A DNA stretch of 51,123 nucleotides from a virus (Duplodnaviria; Caudoviricetes), in the IMG/VR virus record IMGVR_UViG_3300048630_000722, positions 1 to 51,123 of that record, one strand, 5' to 3'. Every line of letters starts with the position of its first letter. The stretch's first letter is position 1. The notes under the pieces are model-generated. The model ran no database searches. It saw nothing but the letters and a program-made list of their open reading frames with translations, and had not been told where the DNA came from. The position numbers and the translations under genes were made by a program. Positions 6,612-43,299 of the stretch are shown here, piece by piece.

Positions 6612-7253
6612 TCAGGGGAGCGGGATGCCGTAGTCCGCGGCGCGGGAGAGGACGGGGAGCGGGAGGGCGGCGAGGTCCGCGGCGGAGCGCGCAGAGGCGT
6701 CCCAGCCGTCGGGCGGCCGGGGGAGCGCCCTCCGCTCCGGGAGCGGCGTGAGGGAGAACGACGTCCCGCGGAGGAGGGCCCTCACGGTGCTCCGACAGGC
6801 GTGGTGGTTCGGCGGGGTGACGGTGTCCCAGACCGGGTCGCCGGCCGGCGCCGTGAGCCCGTTGTAGGCCCGGCACACGTCGCTCTGCCGGCGGTCGGCG
6901 ATCCCGACGAAGGCGAGCGCCTCCAGGTCGTCGCCGAGCGCCTCGAACTGCGCGTGGCGCCCGACGGAGTAGGCCGCGGCCGTGTTGTTCCGGACCACGA
7001 GGTCGAGGTGGTGCGGGCTCAGCGGGTCCGCCCCGAACGCGCGGAGGGCGTCCTGCGCCGCGCGCGCGGCCTCCCCGGGCGCGGCCCCCTCCTGCAGCGC
7101 GTCCGTCAGGGCCTCCCGGACGGCGGCGAGGGCGTCCGAGCAGGCGACGCGGGAGACCGTGAACGCGCGGAGCCGGGCCGCGGCGTCGAGGGCGTAGAAC
7201 GCCTCCGCGGTCATGCCGACGCGGCGGGCGAGGTACGCGGCGGCCTCCCGCAT
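6612..7253 (-). CDS. MuF / SPP1 gp7-like minor head protein (frame open upstream to 7700 with no start codon)
   Basis: RAFTVS, VRNNTAAAYSVG and TPPNHHACRSTV motifs. Confidence 0.85.
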   Translation of the reverse strand: MREAAAYLARRVGMTAEAFYALDAAARLRAFTVSRVACSDALAAVREALTDALQEGAAPGEAARAAQDALRAFGADPLSPHHLDLVVRNNTAAAYSVGRHAQFEALGDDLEALAFVGIADRRQSDVCRAYNGLTAPAGDPVWDTVTPPNHHACRSTVRALLRGTSFSLTPLPERRALPRPPDGWDASARSAADLAALPLPVLSRAADYGIPLP

Positions 7254-7621
7254 CGTCAGCTCGTCCCGGTCGCCGTCGAGGGAGAGGAGCCGGGCCGCGA
7301 ACGGGACCTCGGGCTCGCCGCCCGCGTCGCCGCCCGTGGCGTCGTCCGCGAAGCTCAGGCGGTCCTCCTCCTCCGGGAGCGGGATCGGCTCCGCGTCCGG
7401 GTCCAGGTCCGGGAGGAGCCCCGCGCCCTCGGCCGCGTGCGCGGCGCCGAGGACGGCGGCGGCCGTGAGCGCCCCGTGCAGGAGCGTGGACGCCTCCTCC
7501 TCCGCGGCCTCAGAGACGCGCCAGGGTCCCGCCGTCTCCGCGTCCGCGTTCAGGGCGGCGTCCAGGACCGCCGAGCCTACGGCGCGCGCGAGGGCGGCCG
7601 AGACGGCGTCCTCCGTTCGCG

Positions 7622-9133
7622 CTAGCTCCGCCGCCGCGGCGCGCTCGTAGGCGTCCGGCTCGGCCGCGGGGTCCTCGGGCCAAAAGGGACGTCGGCGAAG
7701 TCACCCGCGGGACCGTTGGGCTCCGGCTGAGCGGGCGTCCCGGTCCGTCCCGGGGCCCCGTCCTGCGGGGCCGGCGCGGAGGGGACGGCGGTGAACACGT
7801 CTGCCGGGTCCGTCTCCTCGGAGCCCTCCAGGTTCGCGGGGCGGGGGAGGTTGTAGACGGTGTAACCGGCCTCCCGGCTCACCTCGAACCCGGCCTCCGC
7901 CGCCTGCAGCCATTGCTCGAACGGGGCCGGCTCCCGCCAGTCGAGGCGGCACCGGGGCGCGTAGCGCGCGGCGTCCGGGCCGAACCGCTTCACGGTGCAC
8001 CAGCGACCGAGGGTGCGGGTCAGCGTCTCCTCCAGCGCGTCGCCGTACCACCGGGCGACGCCGTCGACCTCCCGCTCGGAGACCTCCCCCTGCGCGCGGG
8101 CGCCGACGTCGGCGATGTCGACGGTGAGCGTCGTGGACAAGATGCCCTTTCGGATCCGCTTTTCCAGCCACGTCTGGAACCGCTCGAAGTCGTCGCCCCG
8201 CCCGCCCGTGTTCGGGACGATGAGGGCCTTGGCGGCGAGGGCCCCGGGGCGGCCGCCGGCGATCTGCGCGAGGGAGGAGGCTATGACCTTCGCCATCTCC
8301 GCGGCCTTCTTCGGGTCGTCCGAGGCGGAGTCGAACAGGGCGGCCAGGGAGGGGAGGCCGAACCGGTCCAGGAGGTCGAGCCAGAAGCCCATGCCGGCGC
8401 GGAGGAACTTCCACTCCCAGTAGACGCCCTCTAAGACGCTGACGCCCGCGGGCAGGTCCGGCTCCGCGGCGTTGACGTGCGTGATGAACTTGCAGTCGTA
8501 CGGGCCGGACGGCGGCGTGAGCGGGAGCCCGCCGGGGCGGCCGGCGCGGAGGGCGACGAGGGTCCCGTCGCGGGCGACGTCGTAGTCCTCCGTCCGCTCC
8601 GCGCGGAGGTAGGCCGGGACGCGCGCGCCCGGCGCGCCGTAGGCGCCCTCGGCGTCCACGCGCCAGACGACCTGCAGGACGGTGAACCGGCGCGTGACGG
8701 CGCGGAGGAGCCAGGAGGACGCTTCTCTCAGGTTGACCTCCGTGCGGAGGCAGTCCCGGACGTGCTCCGCGGCGGCGACGGCGAGGGGCTCGCCCTCCAT
8801 GCCCTCGGGCGGGAGCCACTCGGCGGCGCGCCCGACGATGCGCCGGTAGATCTGGAACAGGGACGCGCTCACTTCCGCGTCGCGCTCCATGCGCCGGAAC
8901 ACGTCCGCGCCCTCCTCCGCCATCGCCTCGGAGGCCGGCGGGAGGTGGTCCGTGATCGCGGCGTAGCCCCGGGCGATCCGGGCGACCTGGACCTCCCCGT
9001 CGAGCTCGCGCGGGGGCGGCGTCTTGTCCGCGTCGTCCGGCGTGACGACGGTGAGGTGCCGGCGGGCCTCCGCGGCGGTCGCCGGGCGGACGTCGCGGGC
9101 GGAGGACCAGGGGAGGAGGTCGAGGAGGCCCAA
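7622..9133 (-). CDS. Portal protein (Mu gp29 / DUF935 family)
   Basis: MERDAEVSASL, WLDLLDRFGLP, IRKGILSTTLT and ARAQGEV motifs. Confidence 0.88.
   Translation of the reverse strand: MGLLDLLPWSSARDVRPATAAEARRHLTVVTPDDADKTPPPRELDGEVQVARIARGYAAITDHLPPASEAMAEEGADVFRRMERDAEVSASLFQIYRRIVGRAAEWLPPEGMEGEPLAVAAAEHVRDCLRTEVNLREASSWLLRAVTRRFTVLQVVWRVDAEGAYGAPGARVPAYLRAERTEDYDVARDGTLVALRAGRPGGLPLTPPSGPYDCKFITHVNAAEPDLPAGVSVLEGVYWEWKFLRAGMGFWLDLLDRFGLPSLAALFDSASDDPKKAAEMAKVIASSLAQIAGGRPGALAAKALIVPNTGGRGDDFERFQTWLEKRIRKGILSTTLTVDIADVGARAQGEVSEREVDGVARWYGDALEETLTRTLGRWCTVKRFGPDAARYAPRCRLDWREPAPFEQWLQAAEAGFEVSREAGYTVYNLPRPANLEGSEETDPADVFTAVPSAPAPQDGAPGRTGTPAQPEPNGPAGDFADVPFGPRTPRPSRTPTSAPRRRS
7682..7688 (-). 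other. Candidate -1 frameshift heptamer C CCT TTT (portal to MuF)
   Basis: X XXY YYZ in the portal frame; the -1 frame is open through to the MuF stop at 6612. Confidence 0.6.
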
Positions 9134-9225
9134 GGGGAGGCGGCGCGGGAGGGGTCTAGCAGCGGCGCCCGCCCGTGCGTCCCAGAGGGGGTGTCACCGG
9201 ACGGGCGCCTTTCTCGCTAGGGTTG

Positions 9226-9298
9226 TTGCGCGGGCGGGACTCGAACCCGCGACCTTCGCCTGATGAGGGCGCTGAGCTACCAGCTGCTCCACCGCGCG
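9226..9298 (-). tRNA. tRNA-Met(CAT) with initiator-type body and atypical anticodon arm; CCA not encoded
   Basis: 73-nt cloverleaf: CGCGCGG TG GAGC AGCTGGTA GCTC A GCGCC CTCATCA GGCGA AGGTC GCGGG TTCGAGT CCCGC CCGCGCA A. Has C1:A72 mismatch and A11-U24. Confidence 0.88.
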
Positions 9299-13223: not shown

Positions 13224-13871
13224 TTACAACTTGGAGGCGCAGTTCCCGCACACGCCGGCCACCTTCGCCTGCCCGATGGTCGGACCGCGCTCGGCCGCGG
13301 CGCTCATCATCCGTTCGGCCTCCCCCTGCGGGCCCCAGCGGCGCGTGACGCCGACGAACTGCTCGACGTCGTGCGGGCGCATCGCCCACTTCGGCCGTCC
13401 GTCCGCGCCGAACAGCGGCACCCCGTCTCGCGTGTCCTGCGCGCAGTGGTAGAGCTCGTGGTCTATCAGCGCCATCACGGCGGCCTCGTCCCCTTCCCGG
13501 AGGCGGGCGCGGACGAAGCCGGCGCAGAGGGTCACGTAGAAGTCCGGGACCGTCCCGAACAGCCGCGTGAGGTGGTCCGCCTTCATCCCGCGGGCCCAGG
13601 CGTCGGAGCCGGACGGCTCGCCAAGGTGGGCGCGGCCGACGACGTCCTGGCGCTTGACGCGGTTCGGGCGCTGCGTCCAGAGGAACCGGACGTCGGCCCC
13701 GCCGAGGTGCTCGTGCTCGCGGTTGTAGAGCGGGCCGGGCCCGAGGACGAACTGCTCGCGGACCCACTCGGCGAGGGCCTCGTCGGGGACGTACGCCTCC
13801 GGCTCGAACATCCCGGCCGCGTCCGGGATCGGCGGCATCGGCGGGAGCGTGACGGTGCGGGCCTCAGGCAT
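13224..13871 (-). CDS. Putative phage metallopeptidase
   Basis: HELYH zinc motif, RPHDVEQFVGV and NREHEHL. Confidence 0.8.
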   Translation of the reverse strand: MPEARTVTLPPMPPIPDAAGMFEPEAYVPDEALAEWVREQFVLGPGPLYNREHEHLGGADVRFLWTQRPNRVKRQDVVGRAHLGEPSGSDAWARGMKADHLTRLFGTVPDFYVTLCAGFVRARLREGDEAAVMALIDHELYHCAQDTRDGVPLFGADGRPKWAMRPHDVEQFVGVTRRWGPQGEAERMMSAAAERGPTIGQAKVAGVCGNCASKL

Positions 13872-19828: not shown

Positions 19829-20344
19829 CTAGGCGGCGGGGGGGAGGGGGCGGTCCACGAACACGGCCCCGCGGGGGTCCACGTCGTCGTAGCCGCCCCG
19901 GGCGGTCGCGGCCGCGGCGGAGTACGGCGCGTCGGGGTCCGGGAGGCCGAGGAGCTCGACGTCGGCGTCGATCCTCAGCCCGGCCGCGTCGCCGCGCTTC
20001 GCCCGGACGCGCTCTAGGACGAACCGCCCGAGGTACTCGGCGCCGAGGAAGGCGTCGACGACCTCCCGGGTCTCCAGGGCCCGGACGACGGCGCCGTAGC
20101 GCTCGGCCGGCGTGCTCCGGTCCGTCCCGGCGCGGAGGTTCAGCGCGGCCCCGGCCGTGAACCGGAGCGTGAAGGCGAGCCGGCGGGGCTCGAACCCGGC
20201 CGCCTCCAGCTCCGCGGGCGCGTCGGGCGTGAGGGAGACGGCGTACCGGGCCGCGTGCTCGACGGTCAGGTCCCGGGGCCCGTCTAGGACGTCGAGCTCC
20301 AGGGCGCCGGACTCCGTGCCGAGGGTGAGGGGGGAGCGGGGCAT
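19829..20344 (-). CDS. Tail protein (P2 gpU-like)
   Basis: ARYAV..PAELEAAG..LGAEYLGRFVLE pattern and position. Confidence 0.6.
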   Translation of the reverse strand: MPRSPLTLGTESGALELDVLDGPRDLTVEHAARYAVSLTPDAPAELEAAGFEPRRLAFTLRFTAGAALNLRAGTDRSTPAERYGAVVRALETREVVDAFLGAEYLGRFVLERVRAKRGDAAGLRIDADVELLGLPDPDAPYSAAAATARGGYDDVDPRGAVFVDRPLPPAA

Positions 20345-36926: not shown

Positions 36927-38081
36927 ATGGACCTGTTCAGCCAGCCCCCGCCCGTCCCGGACCACCCCTGCCCGGACGCGAAGGCGCTCCGCCTGCTCAC
37001 GCCGGAGGACGCCGGCCCTGCGCCCACGCTCCCGGACGAGCCAGCGCACGCGGAGGACGTCGCCCCGCCGGACTTCGACCTCGACGCGGCGCTCCACGGG
37101 CGGAACCTGTTCGGGGAGCCCGTCACGCTCTGCGAGGCGCAGGGGGGCTCGCAGTCCCGCAACGCCCTCGCGGACCGGTACCTCATCCCCCCGTTCAGCG
37201 TCCTCCGCGCCGACACCGGGGACTGGCAGGAGCGGAAGCGGGCCTGGCTCGGCCTCGGCATCGAGAGCGAGGTCGGCCGGTCGTCCGGCCTCACGCTCGC
37301 CGAGGACTCCTACCGGATCCACGAGGCGTACTACGGGAAGGCCGGCGCGGCGGCGGGGAAGAAGGCGCCGACGACGAGCACGTTCGACCCGGTCCTGTGC
37401 GAGCTGAGCTACCGGTGGTTCTGCCCGGAGGGCGGCCGCGTCCTCGACCCGTTCGCGGGCGGGTCCGTCCGGGGCGTCGTCGTCGCCGCGCTCCGGCGGG
37501 CCTACCACGGCATCGAGCTCCGGGCCGAGCAGGTCGCGGCCAACCGCGAGCAGGCCGCGCAGATCGTCCCGGCCGCCGCCGCCGCGCGGACCCTCACCTG
37601 GGTCACCGGCGACTGCCGGGAGCGCCTGAGCGACGCGCCGGAGGCCGACTACGTGTTCACCTGCCCGCCCTACGGCGACCTCGAGCGCTACAGCGACGAC
37701 CCGCGGGACCTCAGCACGCTCCCCCTAGAGGAGTTCGCGGAGGGCTACGCCGACGCGCTCGGCCGGGCCGCGGACCGGCTCCGCCCGGACCGGTTCGTGA
37801 CCATCGTCGTCGGGGAGTACCGGGACCGCGACGGGCACTACGTCGACTTCGTCGGCATGACGAAACGGGCCCTCCGGGACGCCGGGCTCCACTTCTACAA
37901 CGAGGCCGTGCTCTGCACGCCGCTCGGGACCGTGCCGATGCGGACGTCCCGGCAGTTCGCCGCCTCCCGGAAGCTCGGGAAGGCCCACCAGAACGTGCTC
38001 ACCTACGTCAAGGGCTCCTGGCGGGCCGCGGCGGAGGCGTGCCAGTCCGCGGACGACCGGGCCCTCCGGACGGCCGCGTAG
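36927..38081 (+). CDS. DNA amino-methyltransferase (N4-C/N6-A type)
   Basis: VLDPFAGG (SAM-binding) and TCPPY (catalytic) motifs. Confidence 0.85.
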   Translation: MDLFSQPPPVPDHPCPDAKALRLLTPEDAGPAPTLPDEPAHAEDVAPPDFDLDAALHGRNLFGEPVTLCEAQGGSQSRNALADRYLIPPFSVLRADTGDWQERKRAWLGLGIESEVGRSSGLTLAEDSYRIHEAYYGKAGAAAGKKAPTTSTFDPVLCELSYRWFCPEGGRVLDPFAGGSVRGVVVAALRRAYHGIELRAEQVAANREQAAQIVPAAAAARTLTWVTGDCRERLSDAPEADYVFTCPPYGDLERYSDDPRDLSTLPLEEFAEGYADALGRAADRLRPDRFVTIVVGEYRDRDGHYVDFVGMTKRALRDAGLHFYNEAVLCTPLGTVPMRTSRQFAASRKLGKAHQNVLTYVKGSWRAAAEACQSADDRALRTAA

Positions 38082-42087: not shown

Positions 42088-42412
42088 GCTACACGAACTG
42101 AGGGAGGCCGCGGCCGACCTCCGCGCCGCGGCGGCCGAGGCCCGGGAGGCGGCCGGCGAGCTCCGCGAGGCCCGGACGCGCGACGCCCTCGGCCCGGACG
42201 CGCTCCTGCCCTACGGGGAGTTCCTGAAGGCGAACGGGCTCAGCTACGAGCTCGGCGACCGTCTCCGGCGCGAGGGGACGCTGAAGGTCCTCCGGGCCGG
42301 CGGAAAGCTCGTCGTCCGCGCCGGGCACGCGGCGGAGTTCGCCCGCGCCCTCCCTCTCGCCAAGCCGGCCGCGAAGCGGACCGGGGGGCCGCGCAGGCGG
42401 AGGACCGCATGA
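42080..42412 (+). CDS. Putative excisionase-like protein
   Basis: Short winged-HTH-like segment EGTLKVLRAGGKLVV and basic tail; upstream of the integrase. Confidence 0.5.
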   Translation: MSELHELREAAADLRAAAAEAREAAGELREARTRDALGPDALLPYGEFLKANGLSYELGDRLRREGTLKVLRAGGKLVVRAGHAAEFARALPLAKPAAKRTGGPRRRRTA

Positions 42413-43299
42413 GGCACGTTATCCCAATCTCGGGCAAGGACTCCCTCGCCGCCGCCATCGTTCAGACGCGCCTCGAGCCGGAGCCTCCCGGTGGAGGGCG
42501 CTACGAGTTCGTTTTCAACGACGTCGGCGCCGAACTCCCGGAGACGTACGCCTGGCTACGGAAGGCGGAGGAGTTCCTCGGGGCCCCCATCGTACGCGTC
42601 GGGCACTCGCTCCCGCGCATGATCGCGGACGAGTACGACTACTACCTGCCGGGGCCCCGGCAGCGCTACTGCACCAAGATGGCGAAGATCCGTCCGTTTC
42701 TCCGCTGGCTCCGGGGGGACGAGGCGACCGTCTACTACGGGCTCCGCTCTGACGAGGGTCACCGCGGACGAGACCCGGCACAGGCCCCGAACGTCACCCC
42801 GCGGTTCCCTCTACGCGACCGCCGGCCGCTCGACCTCCGAGGCGTCCTCGTTCTTCTGGAGGCGCACGGCCTCACGCCGCCCACGTTCACCTGGGCCTCC
42901 CTCGGCGCCCGGTGCGACGAGATAGCTGGGCCCGGGTGGGAGGAGCACCTGCCGGCCTGGCGCGTGCACCAACTCCTAGCGTGGCGGACCCGGGCTAACT
43001 GCTACTTCTGCTTTTACCAGCGGCAGTACGAGTACGCCGGGCTGTTCGAGCACCACCCGGACCTGTTCTGGGAGGCGTGCCGGATGGAGCGGGTGTCCGA
43101 GGCCCGGAACGGCTACACCTGGCGGCAGGGCTACGCGCTAGAGCGGTTCGCGGACCCGGAAGAACGCGCCCGCGTGCGTGATCGCAGGGCACGAGAGGTC
43201 CTGAAGATCGCGCACGCCGCGAAACAGGGGACGTTGTTCGGGGAGTCGGGCGACACCCTGATCGCGACGACCTCGTGCGGGCTCCTCTGCGGCAAGTGA
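42409..43299 (+). CDS. PAPS reductase-family (PP-loop) protein
   Basis: ISGKDS, ELPETY, RYCTKMAKIRP, YGLRSDE and NCYFC motifs. Confidence 0.85.
   Translation: MRHVIPISGKDSLAAAIVQTRLEPEPPGGGRYEFVFNDVGAELPETYAWLRKAEEFLGAPIVRVGHSLPRMIADEYDYYLPGPRQRYCTKMAKIRPFLRWLRGDEATVYYGLRSDEGHRGRDPAQAPNVTPRFPLRDRRPLDLRGVLVLLEAHGLTPPTFTWASLGARCDEIAGPGWEEHLPAWRVHQLLAWRTRANCYFCFYQRQYEYAGLFEHHPDLFWEACRMERVSEARNGYTWRQGYALERFADPEERARVRDRRAREVLKIAHAAKQGTLFGESGDTLIATTSCGLLCGK

Follow-up and report, generated by a model that had tools for sequence, protein, structure and literature searches.

In lambda and most long-tailed phages, the tail assembly chaperones G and GT are reportedly made by −1 frameshifting, as set out by Levin in 1993 and by Xu, Hendrix and Duda in 2004. 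The short and the extended product arise in a fixed ratio, and the G/GT frameshift sites often have no clear stimulator. Frameshifting also extends structural proteins, among them those of Lactobacillus A2 and SPP1 (gp17.1*). Capsid and tail proteins extended in this way occur likewise in T7 (gp10A/B) and in Listeria PSA and A118 (cps and tsh; PMC5009743). In systems of this kind a minor, extended form of the subunit co-assembles with the major form, and the extensions of the T7 and Listeria type decorate the shell or the tail on the outside.

The portal and the minor head protein MuF are encoded by adjacent genes in Mu, SfMu, BcepMu, Riverbug and Mushu (gp29 and gp30). At the C-terminus of ordinary Mu-like portals is a helical tail, about 90 residues long, that closes with A-x-x-x-G, and the start of MuF lies right behind it (9 annotated phages). 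All portal subunits carry this tail in frame, and MuF has a start of its own. In Mu, the last 124 residues of the portal are absent from the virion map and are thought to be cleaved off (PMC11915804). The best-studied MuF protein, gp7 of SPP1, binds the portal at 1–2 copies per capsid (PMC5576092). In-frame fusions of portal and MuF are viable in the Microbacterium subclusters EA3, EA5 and EA8 and in cluster EB, where they are annotated as a single reading frame, with no recoding described in that account (PMC7302621). Finally, in the GenBank record of RcapMu (NC_016165), the annotators mark the portal as short and point to readthrough by a possible +1 frameshift.

Beyond this GenBank note, frameshifting between portal and MuF is apparently undescribed. 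A full-text literature search, with subscription journals and the RcapMu paper (Fogg et al. 2011) outside its scope, found no paper that describes a portal frameshift; the parts covered included PMC8541194, 10.1101/2021.08.04.455094, PMC11445458, PMC8008677 and PMC10299305. The word ‘portal’ is absent from the main text of the recoding surveys PMC5009743 (first 300,000 of 449,034 characters), PMC4066793, PMC3711429 and PMC10885494, and from two of the three supplementary files of PMC3711429. MuF-like genes do appear in PRFect's list of predictions that lack annotation, mentioned in connection with VIP2 fusions (PMC10885494). Here, we describe a portal–MuF junction at which, judging from sequence comparison, programmed −1 ribosomal frameshifting would yield both a short portal and an 840-aa portal–MuF fusion. 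We put the probability of this reading at roughly 80%.

The window and its phage

The DNA analyzed here, at its full length of 51,123 nucleotides, is referred to as the window. It is a temperate myovirus record (51 kb, 75.6% GC) in which a tail sheath, tape measure, baseplate J, major head protein, head protease and tyrosine integrase can be recognized. The phage is present in metagenome runs from hydrothermal vents. Its host likely lies within the Rhodothermota, since a Rhodothermaceae genome bin carries a portal homolog about 60% identical to that of the window. Scans of viral contigs with single proteins found no loci, nor did a profile scan of GTDB genomes, and a profile search of the protein database gave no additional portal. 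Scans for the junction pattern returned 7 viral and 15 genome loci, with a portal or MuF only in the two phages already known (L114 and L117).

Organization of the portal–MuF junction

The features of the junction, in coordinates of the window, are these:

9133–7622, minus strand: Mu-type portal gene, 503 aa (0-frame product); PF06074, phrog_113, PDB portals 8rka and 9khx
7706–7701, minus strand: GGGTGA, a weak Shine-Dalgarno-like element 12 nt before the heptamer, including the TGA (7703–7701) that closes the −1 frame upstream
7688–7682, minus strand: slippery heptamer C CCT TTT (Pro-Phe), then GG, in register with the portal frame
7681–7622, minus strand: 19-codon 0-frame tail, rich in Arg, Pro, Thr and Ser, with the TAG stop of the short portal; overlaps the −1 frame
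7681–7254, minus strand: start-less extension in the −1 frame, about 143 codons; two predicted long helices, then an acidic linker
7670–7631, minus strand: possible hairpin with a CCGCGGC/GCCGCGG stem, −20 kcal/mol, 11 nt after the heptamer
7253–6612, minus strand: core of MuF (minor head protein), in frame with the extension; PF04233, phrog_220

The portal belongs to the family Portal_Mu (PF06074, E 6e-44, residues 77–428, 151 bits against a cut-off of 23.9), and its reading frame in the window has no match to the helical C-terminal tail typical of Mu gp29. MuF matches PF04233 (E 1.2e-13, 52 bits against a cut-off of 29.6, at about 7124–6783) and phrog_220 (E 3.5e-30). Its gene adjoins that of the portal, and a position right after the portal gene is the context rule by which MuF is identified (PMC5576092). 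The PDB holds no convincing match to it. A C-terminal toxin domain was not found in the window's MuF, in which 56 residues lie beyond the Pfam match and no other family was matched.

Around the site the portal frame reads GTC CCT TTT GGC, and 19 portal codons remain after the heptamer. The original prediction saw here a canonical C CCU UUU, and this we confirm: it is in register, and it is the sole in-register X XXY YYZ (Y = A/T) across the 503-codon portal ORF. Another 6663 codons, taken from 16 confident ORFs of the minus strand, hold none; this control set excludes the tail-chaperone gene, which has one such site. The site does not lie between the genes for the tail tube and the tape measure, and the candidate tail chaperone of this phage is at 25247. 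In the −1 frame C CCT TTT re-pairs as CCC TTT, and the re-pairing is cognate.

The −1 frame, too, proved to be as first described: open from stop to stop at 7700–6612 on the minus strand (362 codons, starting four codons before the heptamer), with 358 codons open and the first ATG, GTG or TTG at 7253, codon 145 after the site. The TGA at 7703–7701 closes this frame, and a shift is therefore confined to the 76-nt overlap from 7700 to the portal stop. The computed products, a portal of 503 aa and, by a −1 shift at the site, a fusion of 840 aa, agree with the 503 and approximately 840 aa proposed earlier. The phase of high GC3, with third positions close to 100% GC, passes from the frame of the portal to that of MuF between the intervals 7770–7681 and 7680–7591.

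Like G/GT, this junction combines an in-register X XXY YYZ, close to the 3′ end of a morphogenesis gene, with a short 0-frame tail and a start-less downstream frame, and its two predicted products can be likened to the short and extended chaperones. Unlike G/GT, the two genes are those for portal and MuF and belong to the head module, the predicted products are parts of the virion, and the site is C CCU UUU. The proposed co-assembly of a minor extended form with a major one recalls the frameshifted capsid and tail proteins, but whereas those extensions lie outside, here a whole MuF family would be carried on the 12-mer portal inside the head. By analogy, the junction would work as the tail-chaperone and extended-capsid frameshifts do, joining a different pair of genes. 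With the ordinary Mu-like phages it shares both protein families and the order of their neighboring genes; it differs in that the likely tail lies in the MuF frame and would be reached via the shift only. The Microbacterium fusions have portal and MuF in one chain, as is predicted here, but the window needs a shift to obtain it. RcapMu shares the short portal, the slippery run before its stop, and the helical tail and MuF in the −1 frame; its signal, however, is an A run, and its GenBank note says +1, where the window has C CCT TTT and −1.

Conservation of the slippery site

The heptamer first pointed out in the window recurs in register in both other phages for which DNA of the junction is at hand. 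One of these is L001, with which L003 is identical as a phage (portal 51% identical to the window's); the other is L002 (60%). In both, CCCTTTTGG is kept exactly, in the same register and as the only such site. Their −1 frames, of 310 and 345 codons, respectively, begin PFW and run into MuF. The run itself is C3T4 in the window and C4T4 in L001 and L002. All three phages have CCT TTT at the site, and in their portal and MuF frames TTT is used for none of the 71 other Phe codons and CCT for 3 of the 154 other Pro codons. Since TTT and CCT are so rare elsewhere, the protein alone does not explain why the letters of the site are kept.

The same picture emerges from a larger set of proteins. Eight portals of the clade—the window's, four from a protein search (49–64% alignment identity) and three cluster members—all end in PFG followed by a tail of 7–19 residues, and the residues just upstream of PFG vary. 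Of the cluster members, P0008 is the portal of L001, and P0010 has an end like that of the L002 portal; the independent junctions with DNA number three, and five more members of the clade are represented by protein only. In the −1 frame, upstream of any start, E21-L22, L70, A73, A78, L80-G81 and H84 are invariant in all three phages, and the first 30 codons after the site have GC3 of 28/30 in the window and 28–30/30 across the three. The high GC3 and the invariant residues uphold the earlier view that the roughly 140 extra codons encode real protein. By the measure of this conservation, the junction is a real, conserved recoding signal.

The extension and the portal tail

The extension of about 143 codons is likely the C-terminal tail of ordinary Mu-like portals, displaced into the MuF frame. 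Its helices are predicted at residues 11–47 and 60–88 and close with A-x-x-G, like an ordinary portal tail; the AlphaFold2 model of extension and MuF together, from which they are taken, is of low confidence (pLDDT 53, pTM 0.29). Against a profile of pooled ordinary tails, hhalign gave a weak match in the window's clade (E 4e-4, probability 35%). Shuffled sequences scored higher than the natural one in 0/300 cases for L001, 0/300 for L002 and 5/300 for the window. Against two single-group tail profiles the window's extension scored within its shuffles, and pairwise BLAST gave no match to the portal tail of Riverbug. In the RcapMu-like group, described below, the tail homology is strong (probability 96.7%). 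A complex prediction for an ordinary portal tail with its own MuF (L107) scored 0.01.

Stimulators and efficiency

The original prediction also noted that a stem could form downstream of the site. It can, but it is neither exceptional nor conserved. In the window 4 of 60 control positions are equally stable (z = +0.9 to +1.2), and L001 and L002 have no comparable stem, 23/60 and 41/60 of their controls being as stable. No conserved 3′ hairpin stimulator was found across the three phages (z from −0.6 to +1.2), and we reject this hairpin as a conserved stimulator, for it is not above background at this GC content and relatives have nothing comparable. Such 3′ elements are common in bacterial −1 frameshifting but not obligatory. 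On the 5′ side, control windows gave Shine-Dalgarno-like pairing as good as that before the site in 1/47 cases for L001, 9/47 for the window and 8/47 for L002. The gene starts of the window phage have no Shine-Dalgarno sites.

In Escherichia coli, C_CC.U_UU.U is one of 18 heptamers that give more than 0.10% −1 shifting without stimulators, and H_HH.U_UU.Y is among the most efficient motifs; unstimulated heptamers nevertheless shift weakly (PMC4066793). The efficiency of shifting in the window may be low, because no conserved 3′ structure was found and the 5′ element is exceptional only in L001. One fusion per 12-mer needs about 8% shifting, or preferential uptake of the fusion.

A parallel group of phages

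A similar junction occurs in phages related to RcapMu. Two of these, RcapMu and RcWaterboi, are cultured phages of Rhodobacter capsulatus. The portal of RcapMu ends in an A8 run, and its helical tail and MuF lie in the −1 frame, which spans 529 codons. The same arrangement, with A AAA AAA as the site, is seen in RcWaterboi, RR1-B and EBPR siphovirus 4, and the run is A9 in RcWaterboi and in L018. We counted RcapMu-like loci in IMG/VR among the best 80 of 105, many of which are close kin, so that the counts do not represent independent events. In this sample a run of A8–A10 is present at the portal–MuF junction in 62/80. In 48 of the 80 a short portal ends in A9 with MuF in the −1 frame; 12 are in-frame portal–MuF fusions that retain A9 and have a −1 stop 2–10 codons further on; one has A10; and one has A8 with MuF in the +1 frame. 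In the 12 in-frame fusions, slipping would instead stop the portal. The run is absent from 8 ordinary and 5 start-coupled split loci of the same sample, and 5 further loci are truncated. The A run therefore accompanies the loci in which two products depend on it and is missing from those in which they do not.

One locus, L105, has A9 and then C CCT TTG, and occupies a separate branch of the quick tree. In both quick trees the window's clade stands apart from the A9 group; an AU test did not reject a single clade of the CCCTTTT and A9 groups (p = 0.07). The portals of RcapMu and the window are only about 25% identical.

Alternative explanations

The same two proteins would result if RNA polymerase slipped on the C3–4 T4 run and added one base, an event equivalent to a −1 shift. 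The A8–A10 runs of the RcapMu-like phages, in two phases, fit transcriptional slippage, and no ribosomal stimulator was found at the window's site. But the A/T runs known to slip in this way are about 8–9 long or longer, a length that is reached in the RcapMu-like group and not in the window, where the run is only T4 (as it is in L001 and L002), far below slipping length. In all three phages, moreover, the run is placed exactly as a tandem-slippage heptamer. We consider polymerase slippage improbable here; that the fusion is made by some slippage route is, in our estimation, very probable, and surer than the ribosomal mechanism taken singly. MuF might also be translated on its own, from ATG 7253 or a CTG within its frame, with the extension and the heptamer left as relics of a former fusion or as the mark of functionless, low-level slipping. 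The MuF core has its first helix at ATG 7253, a start from which a free product would be 213 aa long, and L002 has a Met aligned with it; 5 RcapMu-like loci (among the best 80 of 105) use a coupled start; and since genes of the window phage do without Shine-Dalgarno sites, their absence does not exclude a start. L001, however, has no Met at this position, and gene callers picked five different MuF starts in close homologs. No start codon in the −1 frame is common to the relatives, whether in the DNA of the three phages or in the homolog proteins, and so the alternative start that would have undercut the original prediction is not conserved. Nor would a relic keep two rare codons fixed, or an extension with GC3 of 0.9–1.0 and residues invariant across about 50% divergence. 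There is, we think, little chance that an internal start accounts for the junction; a free MuF could still be produced alongside the fusion.

A one-base deletion in an in-frame portal–MuF fusion gene, whether an assembly error or the allele of a dead prophage, would look similar, and such fusions do exist (phrog_2662; 12 RcapMu-like loci; PMC7302621). Against this, contigs with identical letters bridge 7688–7682 without gap or indel in 7 of the 8 runs examined (X1 and X2, possible sources of the window, at depths of 78 and 92; X3, X4, X5, X7 and X8 at depths of 5–8, with a single substitution, at 7753, in X5). The eighth, X6, has two gapless contigs over the site, neither with 31 bases on both sides. 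This check covered 8 of 16 listed runs and used contigs rather than raw reads, and contigs hide rare variants. The extra base or indel that could have overturned the earlier claim is thus not seen in bridging contigs. The break falls, furthermore, at the same motif in phages of 51–60% portal identity and in 8/8 proteins. The conserved junction refutes an assembly error or deletion, to which we assign next to no probability.

Proposed mechanism

Under programmed −1 ribosomal frameshifting, the reading we prefer, ribosomes on the portal gene would slip back one base at C CCT TTT some of the time. The slippage would be in tandem, tRNA-Pro moving from CCU to CCC and tRNA-Phe from UUU to UUU, with perfect re-pairing. 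Most ribosomes would stop 19 codons past the site and release the 503-residue portal, and those that had shifted would add the helical tail, the acidic linker and MuF, completing the 840-residue fusion. The shift would in this way restore tail and MuF together on some of the subunits. A few fusion subunits could then co-assemble into the 12-mer portal, and so bring one or a few copies of MuF to the portal vertex, within the head, with no need for separate targeting. This putative control of copy number is based on SPP1 gp7, which binds the portal at one or two copies.

A broader proposal, which is quite possible and which we hold only tentatively, is that recoding at the portal–MuF junction is a general, repeatedly invented means by which Mu-type heads load a set number of MuF pilot proteins. 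The mixed 12-mer, with MuF carried into the head on its few extended subunits, would take the place of Mu's own non-covalent capture and cleavage of the tail, and the signals would differ by lineage: ribosomal slippage at C CCU UUU here, and A9, in either direction, in the RcapMu-like phages. In the window's clade there would be no RNA stimulator, but possibly a nascent F-x-D-x-P peptide.

Significance

Portals are usually treated as 12 identical subunits, and frameshift-extended subunits are surprising in such a structure. A conserved shift such as the one predicted here would offer a concrete, testable answer to the question of what keeps MuF at one or two copies at the portal in heads of the Mu type. 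If it is true, the annotation of MuF starts and portal ends is mistaken in many cases. Many phages have MuF proteins with toxin or other cargo domains, and a covalent tether to the portal, if there is one, bears on the loading of such cargo. RcapMu and RcWaterboi are in culture, and their parallel site makes the question experimentally accessible.

Variation at the portal–MuF junction

In the RcapMu-like group, a parallel set of Mu-like phages, a run of eight to ten A residues lies, in most of the loci compared, where the portal gene meets MuF. Several of its members (loci L053, L056-L058, L061-L065, L073, L078 and L085) carry portal and MuF as a single in-frame fusion gene in which an A9 run is retained at the junction, with a stop codon in the -1 frame 2-10 codons past the run. 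These fusions are the inverse arrangement: here it is the short portal that would arise from slipping. The length of the run also differs between close relatives, being A8 in the GenBank record of RcapMu (L013, 3682-3703) versus A9 in the near-identical L018 and in RcWaterboi, which is either a variant or a sequencing difference. L029 has an A8 run, with MuF in the +1 frame, and L082 an A10 run. L105 (about 830-900) has a portal of a separate branch; this gene closes with A9 and, right after it, a C CCT TTG heptamer, and a start-poor extension and MuF lie in the -1 frame.

A short F-A-[D/E] motif, possibly a binding or protease motif, occurs in the window at 7700-7692, upstream of the shift site (C CCT TTT), and again at about 7353-7342, at the end of the start-less extension that links this site to the MuF core. 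It is also found upstream of the helical tail in many ordinary Mu-like portals, in which MuF has its own start, and upstream of the A9 run in RcapMu-like portals.

Probable tail assembly chaperones

25738-25068, minus strand: likely tail assembly chaperone pair, upstream of the tape measure gene; site at 25247-25241

The sequence of this region is likely that of a tail assembly chaperone pair. G GGA AAC lies in register, immediately 5' of the stop, and the -1 frame, of 59 codons, ends where the tape measure gene starts. The L002 phage, a relative with 60% portal identity, has a comparable short ORF (locus L134, 1500-1370), likewise in -1, with C CCT CAG as its site versus G GGA AAC in the window.

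Gene layout and gene starts

The head module of the window is split in two (13039-6612 and 32615-29782). Terminase, portal and MuF (13039-6612) are flanked by lysis and baseplate J/fibre genes, and the protease and major head genes lie ~20 kb away. Between terminase and portal there is a stretch of ~2 kb that holds small ORFs and a tRNA.

13224-13871, minus strand: putative phage metallopeptidase (PF18894), preceding the terminase genes
36927-38081 and 42409-43299, plus strand: DNA methyltransferase with a ParB-like part, and PAPS-reductase-family gene, beside the integrase
9225-9298, minus strand: tRNA-Met(CAT), immediately upstream of the portal gene
20174-20269, minus strand: tRNA-Gly(CCC), in the tail region

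No Shine-Dalgarno site was found at the gene starts at 9133, 13039, 13871, 6504, 4333, 3400, 2638 and 2594, all of which have C/T-rich leaders; this pattern fits a host of the Rhodothermota or Bacteroidota type.
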